A stretch of DNA of 63,613 bases, the filler included, from Candidatus Woesearchaeota archaeon (lineage in GTDB: Archaea > Nanobdellota > Nanobdellia > Woesearchaeales > BM511), in the NCBI GenBank assembly GCA_023266675.1. It is 4 parts of 4 records of this genome, joined end to end, with 100 filler letters (N's around TTAATTAATTAA, not from the genome) between each part and the next. Parts side by side here need not be neighbours in the genome. Positions count along the whole stretch, not along the records: positions 1 to 20,465 come from JAHFPP010000019.1; 3 more parts are not named here. One strand, 5' to 3'. Made by a program: the position numbers and the translations under genes. Below, piece by piece: positions 5,757 to 45,739 of this stretch (position 1 is the stretch's first letter; the number at the start of each line of letters is the position of its first letter). The notes under the pieces were generated by a model. The model worked only from the letters and a program-made list of their open reading frames with translations, was not told the DNA's origin and made no database searches.

Positions 5757-6878
5757 ATGCCTAAAGAGAAAGATAAGAAAGAGAAAATTATGATTGAAAA
5801 TGAAGTTACTGATAAAATAAGAAGTAAAGCCAGAGGAGTATTTGATGACATTATCTCTTTAAAGCTTCCTAAGATGGAAATCCCTATTCGAAGCCTTCAA
5901 AACGTTGAGTATAATGAAGACAAGGGACACTTTGTCCAGATGGGTAAGATGAAGGAACGAAATTTAACTGCATCAACAATCAAAACATTTGCGCAGACAC
6001 TTAGAATGATGAATCTTTCACGGGAAATCGTTGGAAACGATGACATCGCTACAAAGAGAGAAGCGTATTACGTCTCCAAGAACTGGGGAGAAGCAAGGTT
6101 TAACGAGCAGCCTGAATCTGACGCTGTTATGGATGATATTGAAGCTATGATGGAAGTTAACCGAGAGCAGATTGGTTTCATCCCTGAAGAGAAGGGAGGC
6201 GAGATTGCCGGCGAATTAATCATTGTTGACAGAGACCCTGAAACTAAAAAAGAGTTAAAGATTGACTGCACAAAGATGGGTTCAGGCGCTTACGCTGCAC
6301 CTAGCTCATGCGAACACTTAAAGTTTGAAACAAAAGCAGATTTTATTTTAGCAATAGAAACAGCAGGTATGTTTCAGCGACTAGTAAAACACAGATACTG
6401 GAAAAAAGCAAACTGCATATTAATCTCAATGGGAGGAGTCCCAACACGAGCTTGCAGAAGATTTATAAGACGCCTTAGTGACGAGAAGAAACTTCCTGTT
6501 TACGCATTCACAGATGGAGACTTTTACGGATTCATGAATATTTATAGGACTCTAAAAGTTGGTTCAGGAAACGCTTCGCATATTAATGAATTTTTTTGTG
6601 TTCCAGAAGCAAAGTTTATTGGCGTAACCCCTCAGGACATAATTGATTATAATCTTCCTACGCATCCGCTTAAAGAAGTTGACATTAAAAGAGGAAAAGA
6701 CGCAATTAAAAACGACCCTTTCGTTCATGCGCATAAAGAATGGCAAAAAGCAATTGAACTGCAATTAAAACTTGGCAAAAGGGCAGAGCAGCAGGCGTTC
6801 GCAGCTTATGACTTGAACTATGTTATGGATAAATATTTGCCTGATAAACTCAAAGACAGAAAGACATGGCTTCCTTAA
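5757..6878 (+). CDS. top6A: DNA topoisomerase VI subunit A
   Basis: Spo11-like TKREAYY, AIETAGMF, TDGD toprim motifs; follows top6B. Confidence 0.97.
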   Translation: MPKEKDKKEKIMIENEVTDKIRSKARGVFDDIISLKLPKMEIPIRSLQNVEYNEDKGHFVQMGKMKERNLTASTIKTFAQTLRMMNLSREIVGNDDIATKREAYYVSKNWGEARFNEQPESDAVMDDIEAMMEVNREQIGFIPEEKGGEIAGELIIVDRDPETKKELKIDCTKMGSGAYAAPSSCEHLKFETKADFILAIETAGMFQRLVKHRYWKKANCILISMGGVPTRACRRFIRRLSDEKKLPVYAFTDGDFYGFMNIYRTLKVGSGNASHINEFFCVPEAKFIGVTPQDIIDYNLPTHPLKEVDIKRGKDAIKNDPFVHAHKEWQKAIELQLKLGKRAEQQAFAAYDLNYVMDKYLPDKLKDRKTWLP

Positions 6879-7678
6879 TCTAGCGGACTTTTTATATTCT
6901 CAAATCTTCTTGTGTCCATATTTATGTATGCTTTTCTTGTTGTCTCAATATTTGAATGTCCTAAAAGCGCTGATATATCATGTAGAGGAACGCCGTTATT
7001 TAGAAGGTGAGTTGCGTAGCTTGCGCGAAGCATATGAGGATAAACATTTTTTTCTACACCTGCCTTTTTTGCTGCATTTATGATTATTAATTCTGCCGTC
7101 CTTATTGATATGTGTTTTCCTTTGTTATAGGATGATTCAAAGAGATAATCAGATACCTGATAATCTGAATAATCATTCAAAAACCTGTCTGAGAGTTTGA
7201 CAAACCTGTCTTTTTTTCCTTTTCCCTGCCGAATTATTGCTCCATTTTCTTTTTCTAAAATATCCTCTTTTCTTATCCTGACTGCTTCGCCGACTCGCAG
7301 GCCTGCAGAGTATATTAACTCAATCAAAAGCCGATGCTTAGAATTGGTAGTAACTTCAATCATCTTTATTATTTCTTCTCGCTTAAGTGTTTTTACGATC
7401 TTTTTTGGAAGACGCGATCGTGAAAAGTCTTTCATGATGTTTCTTTTCATTATTTTCCTGTAATATTTTGTAAGCGCGCTTATCGCAAGCCTTATTGTTG
7501 TTGGCTTTGCAGAATTCATATTAAGATGCAGAAGATATTTTCTCACATCTTCATTTGTCACCTGATGTGGCTTTTTTTTAGCAAACTCCAAGAATTTTTT
7601 GTTGTGATAAACATATGCATCAATTGATTTTTTACTGTCATTTTCTAAAATCATCTCTTCTCTTAACACTTCAAACAT
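6875..7678 (-). CDS. Tyrosine recombinase, integron-integrase-like
   Basis: Likely ATG 7678 after GGTGA RBS; SAM-like N-domain; catalytic R (GLRVGE), K (GKGKK), HMLR, LGH, Y; ends IKSPLD; adjoins a cassette array. Confidence 0.9.
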   Translation of the reverse strand: MFEVLREEMILENDSKKSIDAYVYHNKKFLEFAKKKPHQVTNEDVRKYLLHLNMNSAKPTTIRLAISALTKYYRKIMKRNIMKDFSRSRLPKKIVKTLKREEIIKMIEVTTNSKHRLLIELIYSAGLRVGEAVRIRKEDILEKENGAIIRQGKGKKDRFVKLSDRFLNDYSDYQVSDYLFESSYNKGKHISIRTAELIIINAAKKAGVEKNVYPHMLRASYATHLLNNGVPLHDISALLGHSNIETTRKAYINMDTRRFENIKSPLD

Positions 7679-7703
7679 TTTGTTTTCACCTTTTTTAAAT
7701 AGC

Positions 7704-7818
7704 GCTGCGGCCGGGATTTTCACCCAGGCAACAAGTATTGCGAGTAATTTGAACCCAGATACCCTTGTCGGGCAGTGGCGTATCAAACCACCGCGCTACC
7801 AGGTTACGCTACCGCAGC
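7704..7818 (-). tRNA. tRNA-like element (GAU/Ile anticodon) with 47-nt variable region
   Basis: Acceptor GCTGCGG/CCGCAGC, D-arm GCGT-AACCTGGTA-GCGC, anticodon arm GTGGT-TTGATAC-GCCAC, T-arm CTGGG-TGAAAAT-CCCGG; atypical T-loop and insert. Confidence 0.6.
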
Positions 7819-7904
7819 ATAATAATGAAAATATAATTTTCAAACTTTACTTTTCGGCAAAGTATCGACATAAGTTTTATATATTTGATAACACTAATAT
7901 GTAT

Positions 7905-7942
7905 TGGCGTATCAAACCATTGCATTACCGGTTATGTTACCG
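7905..7942 (-). repeat. Degenerate copy of the 5' half of the tRNA-like element
   Basis: TGGCGTATCAAACCA identical at 7776-7790 and 7905-7919; similarity continues through the D-arm. Confidence 0.65.
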
Positions 7943-8194
7943 GCTTTTTCTTTTTTTAATTCTGAAGAATCCATTTATATATCTCACGCGAGCATGTCCA
8001 GTGTCCAGTGAAGCACTTTGTCGTCGATAACTAGCTGTCCAGTGGATTAACATTTCTTCTGTTCTTATTCATTTTAGCCTCAAATTTCAAAGACTTTTGC
8101 AAAAAGCGTTCATTGTTTGTTCTGATTGAGAATCATAAACCAACATGAGCCCTTTGCAAAGTATGAGTTATAGAAAAAATTTGAGGTTATAAAA

Positions 8195-8413
8195 ATGAAT
8201 AAAGAAAAGATAAAAGGATTAATATCAATGTATGACATGTTATTTGACGACTATTCAAGGCAGATGCTTTGGGTATGCAATAAAGAGTTCTCACAAAGAA
8301 AAAAACGCGCTATATCGGCAGATATCACAGTAAGAATGTTCTTTAAGCTTCTCTATGCACACACCTACCTTATGGAAGAGGCGGAAGAAACAAAAACCCC
8401 AAAAGAAGTTTAG
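8195..8413 (+). CDS. Hypothetical 72-aa protein
   Basis: GAGGT RBS and ATG; no recognisable family. Confidence 0.5.
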   Translation: MNKEKIKGLISMYDMLFDDYSRQMLWVCNKEFSQRKKRAISADITVRMFFKLLYAHTYLMEEAEETKTPKEV

Positions 8414-8485
8414 GGCAGTTTTTATTTATAAAACTTGCGCACGCAGTAATTCACGACAAACATCAAAAACCTTCGTCTAATAGAT

Positions 8486-8492
8486 GTTAAGT
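8486..8492 (+). other. First crossover core site GTTAAGT (attI-like or half attC)
   Basis: Preceded by CTTCG...GA-TGTT like the right arms of downstream sites, but no matching left arm seen. Confidence 0.55.
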
Positions 8493-8513
8493 TCAATATT
8501 ACTCGGGGGCGAT

Positions 8514-8762
8514 TTAGAATTCACCACGAAATGTTGGTCCATGACATTTGGGGCATTTTACATCTCTATGTATATCTGCAGCGATGTTACAAAAAGGACA
8601 ATATCTTCCATCATCTTTTGTTAAATCTCCCAAAGATTCTCTAAGTTCTGATAACTTTGCGCAATCTTCTAATATCTGTTCTTTTGTACGATTTTTATCT
8701 CCAACATTTATTACCTCAAACCATGTAACACCATATGCAACGATTTCGTTTTGATTATTCAT
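8514..8762 (-). CDS. Cassette 1 gene: small Zn-ribbon protein
   Basis: CPFC...CPKC; TTTATATA box upstream. Confidence 0.75.
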   Translation of the reverse strand: MNNQNEIVAYGVTWFEVINVGDKNRTKEQILEDCAKLSELRESLGDLTKDDGRYCPFCNIAADIHRDVKCPKCHGPTFRGEF

Positions 8763-8870
8763 GAATTATAGAATGATTAAATATTATATAAAAAGATTAC
8801 TATTCTGCCCCCTGCGTCATACTCTGCGTCGCCTTCGGCTCCTTGTCTCGCCCACTTTGTAGGCTCAAGA

Positions 8871-8990
8871 ATATAACACGAATTTAGCGGTTCACTTCGG
8901 CTCGCCACTTTGAAGCTTCGCCTCCGTTCTCCCAAATCCTTTAATGTTGCTTCGCAACTTAAATGACATCGCTAAATTCGTATGTTTCTC
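8871..8990 (+). repeat. attC-like site 1
   Basis: AACA-CGAATTTAGCG ... CGCTAAATTCG-TA-TGTT; CCCAAAT at 8931. Confidence 0.8.
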
Positions 8991-9268
8991 AAAATTTTTC
9001 GTCTCCTTTACAGCTTCGCAAAAATTATTTTATTCCGCCACCTTCGTTAAATCTACCGACGAGAAGACAAACTAAGAAATTCCTTGCACTTCTTATAACA
9101 ATGATTTAACGGCTCGCTACGCTCAACCTAAATTTTTTCTTATCAACACGGAAATCAGGGGTAAACTTAATAAAGTACTATTTTTGAACATAACCTTTAT
9201 ATACCAGTATTACATTCCCATAATAAGGGAATAGTGGAGTACTATACCTTATACAAATTATAAGCAAG

Positions 9269-10033
9269 GTGAATGATATGGATGGCTCTGTAATGCTCAA
9301 CAAACTGGATGAATTTATGTCTACACAGGTTAGAAAGGATGTGCTTAAATGTTATGTTATAAAAGATTCTTCCCAATCAGATGTAGTCACCTGCCTAGAT
9401 AAAATGAAACCCCAATATGGTTCAACTTCTACTGTAGATAGAATTACTTCCAGCTTAAATTATATAGGTATAATTGACAAAGAAGATATAAAAGAAAATA
9501 AGCAATATTACCGCGTTAATTGGCATATTTGGATACAAGAAACATTAAAATCACTTGGATTAAAAAATGTTTCTGAAGAAAAGGTTGCAGAGATTGAGAA
9601 ATTAGTTTCAGACAAAAAAATGATTGCCTTCTATTTTGCATTAACTTCTGAAGACGTATTAAAAACTATATGGCAGGAAAAACTGGATAAGGTTACCCTT
9701 AAAGAGCTTAAAAAAGAAGGGATACAACCGGAGATATTTTTGAATTATATGATTAAACAGGGACCTGGCATCAGTCACTTACCATTTTTCTTCATTTTAT
9801 CAGGGAATCCAATGGCAAAATTATGGGCTAAGGATATGAAAGATACCAAAAAAACTAAAGAAAAATCGTTTATTAAAGCTTTAAATGATGCTATTTTGAA
9901 AGATCCTGCAAAAGAAGTCCTTGAAAAATTCGATGACAAAGTCCTGAAAGAGATAATTGATAATATGAGAAAAATAGAGGAGGCAACAAAAAAACTATTT
10001 ATTGAACAGCTAAAAGAACAAATGAAATCATAA
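9269..10033 (+). CDS. Cassette 2 gene: hypothetical protein, possible N-terminal winged helix
   Basis: Long ORF; TVDRITSSLNYIGII...YYRVN resembles wHTH. Confidence 0.65.
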   Translation: MNDMDGSVMLNKLDEFMSTQVRKDVLKCYVIKDSSQSDVVTCLDKMKPQYGSTSTVDRITSSLNYIGIIDKEDIKENKQYYRVNWHIWIQETLKSLGLKNVSEEKVAEIEKLVSDKKMIAFYFALTSEDVLKTIWQEKLDKVTLKELKKEGIQPEIFLNYMIKQGPGISHLPFFFILSGNPMAKLWAKDMKDTKKTKEKSFIKALNDAILKDPAKEVLEKFDDKVLKEIIDNMRKIEEATKKLFIEQLKEQMKS

Positions 10034-10159
10034 TTAAGTACTTAGCACGGAACAATTCCCATAAGAAGAACTGCCCCGCGTAAGCGTGTTACAACTTTTC
10101 TTTTTATTAGGGAGTATTTAAACTTTTTTGTTCTGCGCTAGTAACTTTAAAAAAATAAG

Positions 10160-10747
10160 GTGAAAGCAATGGAAAAACAAAAAATACAAGAAGTATTTTC
10201 CGAGCAGATAAAGCCGCAACTCGGAAGGATACATAAAGAAGAAAAATATCTGAATATAGTGTGGCAGTTAGCTGAAAATGCTTCAGCTAATGATGGAAAA
10301 GGATTGAGAGAAGCGCAACTCACAGATGAAGTAAAACCTGCGTCACAAGCTTTGAATCGGCTTGCAGATAAAGGATTTGTTGAAATTACTCTTCCTGTTG
10401 GAAACGGAACCTTACTTATTGACCCTATAAACAATAAAAGAGAACTTTTCAAAAAGCAGGAGATGATTGAAAGATATTTTACGAAGTTTAGACTGCATCT
10501 CGATAGTAGTCAAGAAGTACAACAAATAGCTATGGAAGTGCTACATCTTAATTCCGAACGCGAATTAAACCGATGGGCAGAGTCACTTGAAGAGCAAGAT
10601 AACTTTGAGCGATATAACCTTGTCGTTTTCAAATTACTTGAAAGAGGAATTGAAGTCGGAAAGCAATTTTATGGTCCAATGCACTGGCGGAAGATGAGTA
10701 AATTTTACAACATTTCTGAAAAGACAAAAACAATTCTTGAGGGATGA
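10160..10747 (+). CDS. Cassette 2 gene: hypothetical protein, possible winged helix
   Basis: SQALNRLADKGFVEI. Confidence 0.65.
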   Translation: MKAMEKQKIQEVFSEQIKPQLGRIHKEEKYLNIVWQLAENASANDGKGLREAQLTDEVKPASQALNRLADKGFVEITLPVGNGTLLIDPINNKRELFKKQEMIERYFTKFRLHLDSSQEVQQIAMEVLHLNSERELNRWAESLEEQDNFERYNLVVFKLLERGIEVGKQFYGPMHWRKMSKFYNISEKTKTILEG

Positions 10748-10938
10748 ACATGACAAAATTTATCTCACGAAGAAATACAAATGTCGATTTTAGCTTTATT
10801 GCAAAAAATCCTGCAACAATCTTAATTGCAGGAGGCGTTCTTTTTTTGTTGATTGGCAAAGAATTATGGGGAGTATTACTCATTATATTAGGAGTAGTGC
10901 TTCACTTAATATGGTTAAAAGGAAAAGGGAGGATATAA
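10744..10938 (+). CDS. Cassette 2 gene: small 2-TM membrane protein
   Basis: Hydrophobic hairpin; ATGA overlap with upstream gene. Confidence 0.65.
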   Translation: MNMTKFISRRNTNVDFSFIAKNPATILIAGGVLFLLIGKELWGVLLIILGVVLHLIWLKGKGRI

Positions 10939-10939
10939 A

Positions 10940-11263
10940 ATGTTAAGCCTAATAGACACATGGATAAAAGCGACGGTTGAACATAGAATACTGAATATTG
11001 AGTATTTTAGCCACACAAAACAAGAGTATACTAAAAGAGATATTGAACCTGATTTTATAGGACCTTCCAGAGATGGAAGAAATAATGGAATATGGGCTAC
11101 ATTTTGTCATCTAAGAAACGAAGGCCCAAGATGTTTTCAACCACATTCTGTAAAGCATTTTTCCATTACTGAAAAAAGCTTTTCTCCTTCACCATTAGGA
11201 AGATGGAAAGAACTGTTGCCATTGTATGAACAAAAAGGACTTAAAGAAAAAGAGTTTGGGTGA
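10940..11263 (+). CDS. Cassette 2 gene: stand-alone WYL-domain protein
   Basis: LNIEY...TKRDIEP...ATFCHLRNEGPRCF matches the WYL pattern. Confidence 0.7.
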   Translation: MLSLIDTWIKATVEHRILNIEYFSHTKQEYTKRDIEPDFIGPSRDGRNNGIWATFCHLRNEGPRCFQPHSVKHFSITEKSFSPSPLGRWKELLPLYEQKGLKEKEFG

Positions 11264-11269
11264 ATTAAA

Positions 11270-11974
11270 ATGAAACTCAAACCCCTCTTTTTATGCTTCT
11301 TGTTAATGAGCACAGTATTGTTTAGTGCATGTACACAACAACAAATTACAGATACAACTGGACAAGTAATTGCATCCGGAAAGAAAATGCTTGATGACAC
11401 CAAGAATTTCGTGTCTAACGAAAGTGCAAGAGATGAAACAAAGATAAGTATGGCTAGTGGAATTGCCGAGTTTGCGACTAACTCCAATATAAAAAAAATA
11501 GAAAAAATTGAAACTTATCAACAATATATTGCAATGGCAGATAACTTAAATTTCGTAATTGATGTTATCAATAAAAAAACAGATGCGAACATAAAACAAA
11601 TATCCAAAGGAGTAGAGGACTGGAACAAATTTAATATGGAAGCTACGCGTTACGCACCTCTTTTTGAAAACTATAATAGTTTAGTGGACAGTTGTTACGC
11701 ATTTGATAAAAACAATGAAAAATCTGCTAACCTAGTATTAATAAAGTCAAGCAGCTTTACTGCAGAAGCGTTATTAATTTTAGGAACTGCATTTTATAAA
11801 ACTGCATTTTTTGCCACAGGGAAAATTGCTGAAGCCACAGGGATAACAAAACTGGCATCCGTATGTGATTCCTGTGTATCTTCAGCTATGAGTGCAGGCC
11901 ATTGGACTATACGTAATGGAATGATTGAAAAAACCACTGAATTTGCTGAAAATATTACATTAGCAAATACTTGA
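11270..11974 (+). CDS. Cassette 2 gene: lipoprotein
   Basis: Signal peptide with FSAC lipobox. Confidence 0.7.
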   Translation: MKLKPLFLCFLLMSTVLFSACTQQQITDTTGQVIASGKKMLDDTKNFVSNESARDETKISMASGIAEFATNSNIKKIEKIETYQQYIAMADNLNFVIDVINKKTDANIKQISKGVEDWNKFNMEATRYAPLFENYNSLVDSCYAFDKNNEKSANLVLIKSSSFTAEALLILGTAFYKTAFFATGKIAEATGITKLASVCDSCVSSAMSAGHWTIRNGMIEKTTEFAENITLANT

Positions 11975-12111
11975 ATTATTATAACTACCCCTGATTTCCT
12001 ATACAATGCTTCGCATGATATTTTTTATGGTTGATAAGAAAAAACTACGGCGGCGGAATAATTTTTGGAGACGAAAAACTCAAGCCCTCGCCACTTACGT
12101 AGCTTCGGGTC

Positions 12112-12250
12112 GAGAAACAAGCGTTAAGCGGTTCGTTTCGCTTGTCCACTTCGTAGCCTTCGCTTCACTCACCCAAATTTGATTTCAACTCTGAATTGCG
12201 GTGTACCTCAATTCGAGGAAATCAAACTTCGCTTAACGCTGATGTTAAAT
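12112..12250 (+). repeat. attC-like site 2
   Basis: AACA-AGCGTTAAGCG ... CGCTTAACGCT-GA-TGTT; CCCAAAT at 12172. Confidence 0.85.
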
Positions 12251-12266
12251 ACAATAAATGCATTTC

Positions 12267-12599
12267 CTATTTACGTGGCTTGGCAACATCAAAAGATCCC
12301 ATAATCTGCTCACGAGTTTTTTCCCATGTCCCATATTTTCTGAGAATTAGATGTGCACATTCTTTTGTAAATATAATATATGCATAAATATCTGATTTTA
12401 CAAATCCGTCTGGGGAATCACTCGAATCAATCACTAAATAATAGTCCATTAAATCGTTATATTTATGGAATTTACGACCAGAATCTTCAAGTGCAAAAAT
12501 TCGGTATAGCTCATTAGCAGTCTGGATTTCAGCTTTAAATTTAAACCAAATAGAATCTTCACTAGAACTAATTCCTTTAATCAATGGTTTTGATGTCAT
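12267..12599 (-). CDS. Cassette 3 gene: hypothetical protein
   Basis: 110-aa ORF filling the cassette. Confidence 0.7.
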   Translation of the reverse strand: MTSKPLIKGISSSEDSIWFKFKAEIQTANELYRIFALEDSGRKFHKYNDLMDYYLVIDSSDSPDGFVKSDIYAYIIFTKECAHLILRKYGTWEKTREQIMGSFDVAKPRK

Positions 12600-12719
12600 A
12601 ATAAGCCAAGTAAATGTTTTAATTTATGTATTTTACGGAAATGCATTTACTTCTCCGCTCCTCGACTGCGGTCTGTGGTGCTCGACCACGTTGCACTCTC
12701 AGCCTGCGGGCTTCGGGGT

Positions 12720-12830
12720 ATTTAACAGCGATTACACGGCTCACTCCTTGCAGTCGTTCGACCCAAATTCCTCGCCTATCTTATAACTGAAATTTTGTGC
12801 GAGGAACTTCGTGTAATCGCGATGTTATGT
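12720..12830 (+). repeat. attC-like site 3
   Basis: AACA-GCGATTACACG ... CGTGTAATCGC-GA-TGTT; CCCAAAT at 12762. Confidence 0.85.
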
Positions 12831-12899
12831 GCAATATTACTCAGGGACAAATAAAATAATTTAGTAAACCTTTTATAGAAACTAATCTAAGTATAGATA

Positions 12900-13322
12900 A
12901 TGGAGAAGACAATCATGGGAATATTTTCTGATGGATGGTGGATATTCTCTCAAGGATTAGATGGATTGATTTATTTTTGGTATGTAACATTAATATTAGT
13001 TCTCATGCTTTGTCTTTCAATTTATTTGATGTATAGAAAAAAAATAAAATTTCCTAAAAAGAGATTATACTTTTTGTTATATCCACTTTTTTTACCAGTT
13101 ATCATTTCTTTATTAGGTTCGATATTTTATGATACTCAATATGCTGGTATTGGGTATTTACCTGTTTTTTTATTTTTTTCAGATTTTATTTATTCAGCTA
13201 TTCTAATATACAAATTCAAGGATTATAGATTATTTCTATTTTCATTTTTTGGTTTACTTATTTGGTTAACTTTCTGGGTTCTTTTTGTTGCTGGAATGTC
13301 AATTGCTAATGATTGGATGTAA
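12900..13322 (+). CDS. Cassette 4 gene: 4-TM membrane protein
   Basis: Hydrophobic ORF ending GMSIANDWM. Confidence 0.75.
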   Translation: MEKTIMGIFSDGWWIFSQGLDGLIYFWYVTLILVLMLCLSIYLMYRKKIKFPKKRLYFLLYPLFLPVIISLLGSIFYDTQYAGIGYLPVFLFFSDFIYSAILIYKFKDYRLFLFSFFGLLIWLTFWVLFVAGMSIANDWM

Positions 13323-13376
13323 TTTTATTTGTCCCTTGCGTCATACTACCCTCGCTCACGTTGTAAGCTTCGGTGC

Positions 13377-13517
13377 ACATAACAGCGATTAACTGGTTCG
13401 GCACTTCGTGGTTCCCACTCTAAAGGTCTCCGCCCACGAAATGCCTCTCCCAAATTGCGAACACTATTTGATAACTAAACTTTTGGTTCGCAACTCCAGT
13501 TAATCGCGTTGTTATAC
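13377..13517 (+). repeat. attC-like site 4 (end of array)
   Basis: AACA-GCGATTAACTGG ... CCAGTTAATCGC-GT-TGTT; CCCAAAT at 13449. Confidence 0.85.
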
Positions 13518-13585
13518 GAAGTAATTGTAACCGCTCATTCTCAACACGCAAAATATAAAAACCCCTTCTTTGATAATAGAGTATT

Positions 13586-14668
13586 ATGAAGATTTATCAG
13601 AAAGTTGATATGAATAAGATTAAGCGTCATCATCTTGAAGTTCTTAAGAGTTTGCAGTACAAAAGCGGTTTATTCGCAGCGTCAAAGAAAAGCGTATCAA
13701 CCGGCTACGATAAAGCGTGGCTTAGAGACAACTTCTATGAGTGCCTGGCGTTTGAGACAGTTGGTGATTATGACACTGTGAAAAAGACTTATAGGGCGAT
13801 TCTTGACATTTTTTTAAAGCATGAGGAAAAGATTGACTGGGCGATTAAGCAAAAGCCTGATGCTGATTGGAAATACATCCACCCGAGGTATAATCCGGAC
13901 ACTTTTGAGGAATTCTGGGAAGAGTGGGGTTTTAAGCAGCATGACTGCATCGGCGCAATTCTTTTTAAGATAGGTGAGCTTGAAGTTGACAGGAAGATAA
14001 AGATATTAAAAAATGAGAAAGATTACAGGATTGTGCAAAAATTAGTTGATTATCTTTCAAGCATTGAATACTGGCACGACCCAGACTCAGGGATGTGGGA
14101 GGAGAACCAGGAAATACACGCGTCATCAGTTGGCGCCTGTGTTGCAGGACTTCAAAAGGTTTCACAGATAAGAAAGATAAATGTGAATCCTGAACTTGTC
14201 GTTAAAGGTTTTGGTGTTTTGTTAAACATTCTTCCAAGAGAGTCTGAGAAGAAATTTGTTGACTTGGCATTATTGTCACTTATTTATCCTTATGATATTG
14301 TCAACAAAGAGCAGAGAAATGATATTTTAAAAAACGTTGAATACCACCTTGAGAAGAACATGGGAGTTATAAGGTATAAGAATGACCATTATTACAATAA
14401 AAATCCTGACGGGCATTCTGAGGAAGCTGAGTGGACAATGGGTCTGTCATGGCTTGCAATAATCTATGAAAAGCTTGGAAAACAGAATATGGCCAAACAC
14501 TACATTGAAAAGACATTAAATACAATAACTGACACTGGTGAAATCCCTGAGATCTATTATTCAAACACGAAAAAACCAAACCCAAACACTCCGCTTGGAT
14601 GGGCTGAAAGCCTTTTCATAGTTGCTTTGCACAAGTTCCAAAATGAGTTTTCTGAAAAAGTGAAATAA
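13586..14668 (+). CDS. Glycoside hydrolase family 15 protein (glucoamylase-like)
   Basis: AWLRD, DSGMWEE, GVIRY, PLGWA motifs. Confidence 0.85.
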   Translation: MKIYQKVDMNKIKRHHLEVLKSLQYKSGLFAASKKSVSTGYDKAWLRDNFYECLAFETVGDYDTVKKTYRAILDIFLKHEEKIDWAIKQKPDADWKYIHPRYNPDTFEEFWEEWGFKQHDCIGAILFKIGELEVDRKIKILKNEKDYRIVQKLVDYLSSIEYWHDPDSGMWEENQEIHASSVGACVAGLQKVSQIRKINVNPELVVKGFGVLLNILPRESEKKFVDLALLSLIYPYDIVNKEQRNDILKNVEYHLEKNMGVIRYKNDHYYNKNPDGHSEEAEWTMGLSWLAIIYEKLGKQNMAKHYIEKTLNTITDTGEIPEIYYSNTKKPNPNTPLGWAESLFIVALHKFQNEFSEKVK

Positions 14669-20465: not shown

Positions 20466-20565
20466 NNNNNNNNNNNNNNNNNNNNNNNNNNNNNNNNNNN
20501 NNNNNNNNNTTAATTAATTAANNNNNNNNNNNNNNNNNNNNNNNNNNNNNNNNNNNNNNNNNNNN
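20466..20565. other. Artificial contig linker
   Basis: N-run with TTAATTAATTAA (stops in six frames). Confidence 0.97.
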
Positions 20566-40393: not shown

Positions 40394-40493
40394 NNNNNNN
40401 NNNNNNNNNNNNNNNNNNNNNNNNNNNNNNNNNNNNNTTAATTAATTAANNNNNNNNNNNNNNNNNNNNNNNNNNNNNNNNNNNNNNNNNNNN
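40394..40493. other. Artificial contig linker
   Basis: N-run with TTAATTAATTAA. Confidence 0.97.
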
Positions 40494-45639: not shown

Positions 45640-45739
45640 NNNNNNNNNNNNNNNNNNNNNNNNNNNNNNNNNNNNNNNNNNNNTTAATTAATTAANNNNN
45701 NNNNNNNNNNNNNNNNNNNNNNNNNNNNNNNNNNNNNNN
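45640..45739. other. Artificial contig linker
   Basis: N-run with TTAATTAATTAA. Confidence 0.97.

Follow-up and report, generated by a model that had tools for sequence, protein, structure and literature searches.

In a window of 63,613 nucleotides (nt) from the genome of a Candidatus Woesearchaeota archaeon (assembly GCA_023266675.1), by which we mean the whole stretch of DNA analysed, we identified an integron-like array consisting of a Xer-like tyrosine recombinase gene, an attI-like site and four cassettes, each with an attC-like hairpin site of 103-133 nt. A sequence-only reading of the same DNA had pointed out that two of these cassettes, carrying unrelated genes in opposite orientation, are bounded by the same pair of terminal motifs. 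Our analysis makes it probable that this frame is part of the recombination site itself and is reused around differing cargo. The motifs would then represent the stretch nearest the site, conserved in sequence, of a terminal inverted repeat that we named outer helix P0. In Woesearchaeota-like DPANN archaea, within an integron-like system of the Xer type, each cassette would carry P0 as part of its own site. This reading is based on the anatomy of the cassettes, the complementarity of cognate cassette ends, the distribution of the frames among relatives, the modular sharing of frames and the strand asymmetry of the sites, all of which were observed directly.

The same motif pair encloses unrelated genes in cassettes 1 and 4

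The left motif, CAATATTACTC(G/A)GGG, is present at 8494-8508 and 12832-12846, and the right motif, CCC(C/T)TGCGTCATACT, at 8809-8823 and 13333-13347; all four copies are exact, lie on the plus strand and stand where the sequence-only reading had placed them. Allowing up to two mismatches, no further match of either motif was found in the window. Shuffled sequence gave an expectation of 0.17 matches for the left and 0.13 for the right motif, and two matches were reached in 0 and 1 of 100 shuffles, respectively. Over the whole 1.22-Mb genome, one extra match of the left motif was detected at the same tolerance (two mismatches, on another contig), and none of the right motif. Each left motif is preceded by a GTTA core, whose G (at 8486 and 12824, respectively) lies 8 nt ahead of the motif start. 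The three mismatches between the arms, AATATTACTC versus AGTATGACGC, are common to both pairs as had been described; moreover, the right arm has one extra base that had gone unmentioned, a bulged T ahead of GCGTCATACT.

Past the conserved segment, each frame continues into an extension private to the cassette. In cassette 1, the left frame (8494-8510, plus strand) is CAATATTACTC followed by GGGGGC, and the right frame (8807-8823, plus strand) is GCCCCC, the bulged T and GCGTCATACT. In cassette 4, CAATATTACTC is extended by AGGGACAAATAAAAT on the left (12832-12857, plus strand), and ATTTTATTTGTCCCT, the bulged T and GCGTCATACT form the right frame (13322-13347, plus strand). Every cassette adds a perfectly complementary extension of its own.

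The first pair encloses an open reading frame (ORF) on the minus strand (8514-8762) that encodes 82 amino acids (aa) with two CxxC pairs. Described earlier as a Zn-ribbon gene, it matches A2L_zn_ribbon weakly (E 0.0018), under the Pfam cut-off. The second pair encloses a plus-strand ORF (12900-13322) for a hydrophobic protein of 140 aa, to which profile searches assigned no family. No blastp match was found between the two proteins, in line with the claim that unrelated, oppositely oriented genes occupy the same frame. The cassette 4 protein had no close relatives in the metagenome contig collection, and the cassette 1 protein gave two short zinc-ribbon matches in bacteria, and no others, in the genome contig collection.

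All four cassettes carry an inverted repeat beside an attC-like site

Core G residues lie at 8486, 8984, 12244, 12824 and 13511. Cassettes 1 (8487-8984, ending at the G of its own site) and 4 (12825-13511) were delimited by these cores; between them lie cassette 2 (8985-12244), with five plus-strand ORFs, and cassette 3 (12245-12824), with one minus-strand ORF (12267-12599), all four being listed on the plus strand. An inverted repeat of its own was found in every one of them, not just in cassettes 1 and 4, with arms at 8995-9006 and 12067-12078 in cassette 2 and at 12255-12267 and 12637-12649 in cassette 3. The left arm begins about 10 nt past the G/TT crossover (cassette position 10-11 in cassettes 2-4; that of cassette 1 was missed by arm scoring and was set from the motif coordinates). 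The right arm ends 38-77 nt ahead of the AAC of the cassette's own site, and two small CTTCG-rich hairpins are located between arm and site; in cassette 1, this module with CTTCG-capped hairpins occupies 8824-8874 (plus strand).

The sites themselves lie at 8875-8986 (site 1, AACA ... TGTT, 112 nt), 12116-12246 (site 2, 131 nt), 12724-12826 (site 3, 103 nt) and 13381-13513 (site 4, 133 nt, the last of the array), all on the plus strand. A single architecture is repeated four times: an 11-bp stem, preceded by AACA and followed by two unpaired bases and TGTT, encloses GGYTC, one hairpin, CTCNCCCAAAT and another hairpin, in that order, and a 2-nt bulge lies between the two stems. In the three sites that were scored, 15 of 15 stem positions pair. 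Folded as single-stranded DNA, the four sites reached z scores of -3.1 to -6.5 (bottom strand -3.1, -4.1, -4.4 and -6.5 for sites 1 to 4; top strand -3.6 for site 1). An alignment of the four sites with MAFFT misaligned site 1 and the interiors, and therefore patterns and our own detectors were used instead of a covariance model.

The bases that follow GTT at the start of a cassette are complementary to those preceding its own AAC; the complementary stretch is 7, 9 and 10 nt long for cassettes 2, 3 and 4, respectively, but only 4 nt long for cassette 1. The mean over cognate starts and ends was 7.6 nt, compared with 4.5 nt for non-cognate pairs. By the classical argument, this complementarity of the cassette start with the bases before its own AAC would place the crossover at G/TT.

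Cassette 2 shows additional modular inverted repeats that run inward to 9163 on the left and 11986 on the right. Those on the left reach about 180 nt inward and include, at 9097-9115, a half-site similar to the 5' portion of attC-like sites, because of which cassette 2 may be a fusion of cassettes.

Joining the cassette ends extends the fold, and the bottom strand folds better

We modelled the excised circular form by a script that joins each cassette start to its own site. In this joined form, the arms make an outer helix and the bottom-strand energies are -29.3, -46.5, -46.7 and -52.9 kcal/mol, compared with -24.9, -35.2, -34.2 and -36.1 kcal/mol for the same four in the array context. The bottom strand folds better than the top strand by 1.2-2.6 kcal/mol in all four sites. 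At the CAAT/ACT junction, each of the four cassettes has A.C when read as the top strand and T.G when read as the bottom strand.

Loop words showed a pronounced strand bias. In 29 composite sites (6279 nt), CTTCG was counted 71 times on the top strand, compared with 2 for its complement; the counts were 17 versus 0 for GCTTCGC and 15 versus 1 for CTTGCAG, while all three words are strand-symmetric genome-wide. On the bottom strand, these words read C-GAA-G and T-GCA-A, GNA loops that are very stable in mini-hairpins of DNA; only 23 of the 71 CTTCG words are of the form CTTCGG, which corresponds to the UUCG loop of RNA. Together with the folding energies, the biased loop words favour a folded bottom DNA strand, as in integrons. 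The three mismatches of the motif pair become one T.G and two A.G on the bottom strand; tolerated on that strand only, they could enforce strand choice or form a recognition loop.

Framed cassettes are widespread in relatives

The pattern AACANNNNTTNNNNGGYTCN{19,49}CCCAAAT was found at 99 sites in 70 of 401 genomes of the order, compared with 1 control site (4 of the 70 genomes are unpublished, and 66 of 397 remain without them). We fetched 20 regions from contigs with multiple hits, in which the detector returned 29 putative cassettes including those of the window, and in 21 of the 29 the cognate inverted-repeat score exceeded the 95th percentile of the scores of non-cognate pairs. A further test, with fixed register, asked whether the 12 nt following position 10 recur as their reverse complement, with at most two mismatches, ahead of the cassette's site; they did in 18 of 29 cognate but 25 of 812 non-cognate pairs. 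Over all collected loci there were 139 unique arm matches, 76 of them followed by CT; the 63 with no CT equal the count of a reversed-arm control (63). The arms follow the rule G/TTNNNNN-CAA-T-X ... rc(X)-A-CT(C/T), where rc denotes the reverse complement.

In total, 93 framed units were obtained from relatives, counting both the general family and the frame family of the motif pair. The perfect helix run has a median of 13 bp (interquartile range 10-14), also the median of the general family. The notion that longer cargo needs a longer clamp was rejected, helix length being unrelated to unit length (rho 0.05). The helix carries a GC clamp at its cargo end (GC 0.63 in the inner 4 bp, 0.26 elsewhere), and P0 looks designed. 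Two compensatory changes, A-T to G-C between cassettes 6 and 8 of locus L050 and C to T in both arms between L099 and L140, which hold the same cargo, indicate that pairing is kept.

The longest ORF lies on the plus strand in 42 of the 93 units and on the minus strand in 48, with no ORF of 40 aa in the remaining 3, and the co-orientation of ORFs with the array that is typical of integrons was not found over these units. The cargo comprises restriction-modification systems, Mrr, GmrSD, ParE/PIN/MazE pairs, a ThsB-like protein, methyltransferases, Nudix and radical SAM proteins, as judged from a scan of 105 of the 129 ORFs of at least 50 aa (the 8 ORFs of the window were scanned separately, and the 16 others were omitted irrespective of result). 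Two framed units, L048 14026-14862 and L066 8076-8831, carry transposase-type genes (DDE_Tnp_1, rve), and therefore insertion sequences are also found inside frames. A GC-rich module, GTCCTTCGGACATAT.GTCTCGC..., recurs 40-110 nt past the cassette start in L018, L020 and L028, in short, seemingly ORF-free stretches after a site.

The frame of cassettes 1 and 4 recurs around dozens of other genes

We then considered the motif pair itself outside this genome, which the sequence-only reading had proposed as a check. At its set distance from GTT (GTTNNNNNCAATATTACTC), the left motif was found at 56 sites in 45 of the 401 genomes, against 11 control sites (2 of the 45 genomes are unpublished, leaving 43 of 399 without them). 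GCGTCATACT followed downstream within the locus, with at most one mismatch, at 18 of 31 distinct left-motif sites; the pair of L075 was dropped as a probable false pair, and 17 pairs remain in the order sample. A scan of one genome per species with GTTATRYGCAATATTACTC yielded at least 121 stretches, about 17 being expected by chance according to our own estimate. Among the matches listed, the right motif with a complementary extension was found within 1.7 kb at 51 of the 80 loci with DNA. Of these 51, 18 are labelled Woesearchaeota, 7 Nanoarchaeota, Nanobdellota or Pacearchaeota, 2 Aenigmarchaeota, 1 Nanohalarchaeota and 2 'archaeon', while 10 carry methanogen-type and 11 bacterial labels, the latter including Patescibacteria and a 4.5-Mb Latescibacterota chromosome; the labels are those of the depositors, and those of automatic bins may be wrong. 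Among the loci with bacterial labels are L107 and L146 (Latescibacterota records) and L111 (a Patescibacteria record), whose cargo is the same as in two Woesearchaeota records. On the Latescibacterota chromosome, a recombinase match comes no nearer than about 85 kb.

Pooling both samples, which may overlap and were selected by the left motif alone, gave 68 motif pairs with 55 distinct cargo clusters, and the motifs thus do occur as pairs around diverse genes elsewhere, in both orientations (longest ATG-initiated ORF on the plus strand in 40 clusters, on the minus strand in 10, none in 5). The right motif is exact in 59 of the 68 pairs, C occupies all three mismatch positions in 65, and the right-arm bulge is kept in all 68. 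This near-invariance fits the earlier suggestion that the conserved mismatches are functional. A private extension follows the conserved 11 nt in each cassette of the frame family; in the 17 pairs of the order sample, it pairs perfectly over 5-15 bp in 12 and starts past one mismatch in the rest. No cross matches were found by blastp among the 17 cargo proteins of the order sample, and the 7 multi-member cargo clusters gave no minus-strand match, that is, no inverted copy. In L094, L082, L076, L072, L125, L129 and L161 we also observed 'minimal' sites of about 20 nt (AACA, 8-10 nt, TGTT) with no inner hairpins, which look like dif-type double-stranded sites or collapsed hairpins.

Frames are shared as modules while the cargo differs

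In the general family, 14 pairs of units have the same arms (at most one mismatch), and in 11 of them both ends are shared with 71-100% identity, the left end over 32-63 nt and the right end over 17-141 nt. The cargo gave no blastp match at E 1e-6 in 10 of these 11 pairs, and in 3 of the 10 the unrelated cargo lies in opposite orientation. One example occurs within a single array, where a radical-SAM/DUF5680 set on the minus strand and a HaeIII restriction-modification pair with a ThsB-like gene on the plus strand are framed alike. Conversely, homologous ParE-type pairs (58-66% identity) are oppositely oriented in different frames. Cargo in the same frame is not always unrelated, as had been supposed: L133 and L176, taken up as a cargo swap within the same private arms and rejected as such, hold homologous small membrane genes that differ by an internal indel. 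The empty frames that had been called for exist in nearly empty form, in L067, where the cargo span is 60 nt, and in L057, whose cassette 24 measures 231 nt as a whole.

A Xer-like recombinase and an attI-like site adjoin the array

The recombinase gene (6875-7660, minus strand) is divergent from the array and matches Pfam Phage_integrase at 4.7e-32. Its best-scoring model was that of archaeal XerA (NCBIfam NF040815; 185.6 bits, cut-off 220), while the integron integrase model TIGR02249 gave 151.9 bits in two stretches (cut-off 265). In the alignment to IntI4 / VchIntIA (2a3v), 16 query residues (201-217) stand opposite 61 (chain 172-233), indicating that the IntI-specific insertion near patch III is missing. 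The nearest solved relative, the Pyrococcus Xer-type protein 4a8e (E 3.3e-33), was aligned end to end. This gene is the only XerA-like gene in the genome; 3 of 5 related genomes have a second, higher-scoring XerA elsewhere. Searching the genome contig collection with the recombinase protein returned 2 loci only. Homologues with 31-37% identity lie divergently beside the arrays of L055, L061, L056, L049, L024 and L062, and in the Patescibacteria record a 284-aa Xer-like recombinase adjoins the framed cassette (L111; G402:C1:65441-66241), its match to the integron-integrase model skipping model positions 179-236.

The attI-like site, TAATAGATGTTAAGTT, lies at 8478-8493 (plus strand), with a crossover predicted between G 8486 and TT, and sequences like TAATAGATGTTAAGTT were found between recombinase and first cassette in 4 other genomes.

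The frame as a probable part of the site, and how else it might be explained

If the frame belongs to the site, insertion would linearise the cassette at G/TT inside its site, so that the site part 3' of the crossover (TTNNNNN-CAAT-arm) would become the cassette start and the remainder (arm-ACT, the two small hairpins and the AACA...TGTT site) the cassette end. Split in this way by the crossover, the frame would be indifferent to the enclosed gene and its direction, and frame plus site would form a module common to cassettes with unrelated cargo. In the excised cassette, most likely as a single-stranded bottom strand, the arms would pair with each other at the base of a structure with several hairpins, about 200-300 nt in size, and so close it; in the frame family, the first 10 bp of this helix would be imperfect, interrupted by three constant mismatches and a bulge of one base, and the cassette-private perfect helix would come next. 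Such a helix would form only where the cassette ends meet, in an excised circle or a long single strand, and it could mark or stabilise the free cassette for insertion, or unite the flanking sites to excise exactly one cassette. We infer that it forms in vivo, on one of these molecules, and is used by the recombinase.

Several points weigh against this reading. The site and arm detectors are home-made, with rules derived from this window. Taken by themselves, the conserved arms of 11 nt form a weak duplex (-1.5 kcal/mol for the top and -2.4 kcal/mol for the bottom strand), and may be recognised as sequence instead of helix. Since the arms lie 0.3-3 kb apart in the array, the helix could form only in a cassette that is excised or single-stranded over a long stretch. 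The cognate test failed in 8 of the 29 putative cassettes; in 6 of these 8 the start/end complementarity was also low, which suggests that the detector may have overlooked a site in between. In bacteria, it is the IntI-specific domain that reads folded attC sites, and the recombinase here is without it. Finally, the assembled contigs (2 sequencing runs of one study) gave no joints, circle junction, recombination or alternative arrangement, a result that is uninformative either way.

The sequence-only reading had supposed that cargo was placed in either orientation into a pre-existing empty chassis. A frame shared around diverse cargo stood up well; a chassis separate from the site did not, as the frame appears to be the site's own outermost portion, divided by the crossover. 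Placement of cargo is plausible, and descent with later replacement of cargo fits equally well. In its full form, this explanation holds that empty self-complementary cassettes came first and that cargo, pointing either way, was put into the apex of their outer hairpin; it agrees with our preferred reading on the nature of the frame and differs on the origin of the sharing, as shared frames would reflect repeated loading of one chassis lineage. We regard it as possible, although on balance not the likelier course of events. It accounts well for the 55 distinct cargos in one frame family, the 10 same-arm pairs with unrelated cargo (3 oppositely oriented), the ParE-type pairs in opposite orientation in different frames, the near-empty units of L067 and L057 and the 3 of 93 units without a 40-aa ORF. 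However, the extensions of the empty units are short (5 bp), and these units could be deletion products; the apparent swap between L133 and L176 turned out to be homologous cargo; the private extensions vary within one family, for which a single chassis is insufficient without later change; and no insertion scar, enzyme or intermediate is known. Somewhat more doubtful still is the specific proposal that genes are loaded at the apex of a pre-formed empty cassette, with the invariant mismatched internal loop as the recognition element of the loading or recombination machinery. It is unlikely, too, that the 11-nt arms are protein-binding half-sites (TATTAC / TATGAC) on double-stranded DNA, with only the private extension pairing. 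The weak duplex energy of the arms and their conservation down to the non-pairing bases (65 of 68) speak for half-sites, but at those positions the general family has an ordinary helix, variable in sequence and perfectly paired, the mismatches are of a kind (T.G, A.G) tolerated on the bottom strand only, and no candidate binding protein is known.

The other explanations fare much worse. Inverted repeats around cargo beside a tyrosine recombinase, with the longest ORF on the plus strand in 42 and on the minus strand in 48 units, might suggest a switch that flips the cargo and thereby yields both orientations. This is highly improbable, given that the 7 multi-member clusters held no inverted copy (a small sample, of assemblies only), that promoter-like AT-rich boxes lie inside the frame, and that the arms are cassette-private and so not all recognisable by one recombinase. 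The many CTTCGG words would be UUCG loops in top-strand RNA, as expected if the arms paired in a transcript to form a processing or stabilising stem around the mRNA; all 71 CTTCG words (including the 23 CTTCGG) fit the C-GAA-G loop of the bottom DNA strand, though, cargo lies on either strand, the likely promoter of cassette 1 is inside the right arm and no Rfam family matches, which leaves this idea with slightly less credit again. Least probable of all is an independent element like a miniature inverted-repeat transposable element that landed beside the cores: it would explain terminal inverted repeats around cargo, but the arms keep a fixed offset from G/TT in every cassette, their flanks are conserved site sequence (CAA left, CT right) and not target duplications, and the motifs are absent elsewhere in the genome.

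Relation to integrons and Xer systems

The array resembles integrons in several respects. The recombinase gene is divergent from a one-directional array with an attI-like site; the end of each cassette is an imperfect palindrome that lies between ...AAC and GTT... (RYYYAAC ... GTTRRRY) and folds as a hairpin; the crossover, judged from cognate complementarity, would be at G/TT, and the bottom strand folds better; and the cargo is rich in toxin-antitoxin, restriction and small unknown genes. Unlike in integrons, the recombinase has no IntI-specific domain, the sites have two extra upstream hairpins and a cassette-private outer helix of about 13 bp spanning the crossover, and gene orientation is mixed (42 plus, 48 minus). 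Ghaly et al. (2022) reported integrons in 75 archaeal genomes, with six IntIs that carry an additional domain and mostly clusters of attC sites lacking integron integrases (CALINs), and stated that array ORFs are 'generally in the same orientation' (PMC9668308). Terminal inverted repeats of the kind seen here are not described in the portions of that paper considered here. Full-text literature searches gave no published account of cassette terminal inverted repeats or of a Xer-type integron-like platform, although the supplements of PMC9668308 (figs S1-S2, data S1-S4) may list such arrays as CALINs. Our results suggest that many integrase-less archaeal attC clusters may be served by an overlooked Xer-like recombinase.

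In the dif site, two 11-nt arms are separated by a 6-nt spacer (PMC8371274). The present system is similar to Xer/dif and Xer-exploiting elements in its Xer-family enzyme and in the stacking of elements at one site. Its arms, unlike those of dif, are 100-190 nt apart (100-130 nt in the window), save for the 'minimal' sites of about 20 nt in relatives, and its cassettes are single genes, not phages. The CTX phage is integrated as a folded single strand by XerCD, and a folded single strand is likewise a plausible substrate here.

In the Vibrio cholerae superintegron, one highly similar site module, the Vibrio cholerae repeat (VCR), accompanies hundreds of unrelated genes, and its conservation covers the 3' side of the gene and six bases at the cassette start. 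Our cassettes likewise have a shared site module on unrelated genes, raising the question of how cassettes are made; unlike with the VCR, the conserved sequence stands on both sides of the cargo and is complementary. How an arbitrary gene joins a recombination site is a long-standing open question of integron cassette making. A group IIC-attC intron is said to add the site on one side of the gene, a route that reportedly predicts no matching sequence on both sides. The intron model addresses how a gene acquires its attC site (PMC3001079). No intron or reverse transcriptase was found in this array in Rfam and Pfam scans. Here, site-derived, complementary sequence on both sides of the cargo is reused with hardly any change for dozens of genes that are unrelated to one another, in many genomes including bacterial-labelled ones, and this two-sided, reused frame narrows the mechanisms to a gene placed inside a site-bearing module or an exchange of cargo within the module. 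Empty frames, frame families and invariant mismatches are concrete objects for testing these. If apex loading were true, it would provide the first sequence-level handle on integron-type cassette generation, in a system shared by DPANN archaea and bacteria of the Candidate Phyla Radiation (CPR).

Genomic context of the array

Contig C57 of the 1.22-Mb genome supplies positions 1-20,465 of the window, and the array lies on this contig alone; runs of N at 20466-20565, 40394-40493 and 45640-45739 join the contigs of the window. The gene order is topoisomerase VI B and A, the tyrosine recombinase, an intron-bearing tRNA, a 72-aa ORF and the GTTA core that opens the array; the topoisomerase VI genes upstream indicate an archaeal chromosome. 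When the DNA of the whole array was searched for in 4 genomes of the same family, short matches at chance level were all that appeared. Over 6500-14500, the tRNA was the sole Rfam match, no family being assigned to the cassette sites, and ARAGORN reported no tRNA in that range, including the one placed by Rfam at 7703-7818 (minus strand, 44.9 bits), which overlaps the 5' end of the long recombinase ORF. Following site 4, a GH15-like gene begins at 13586. A 25-nt piece of the 5' part of the tRNA (7776-7800) is repeated 129 nt away, at 7905-7929, with 84% identity, and could be the remnant of an integration event.

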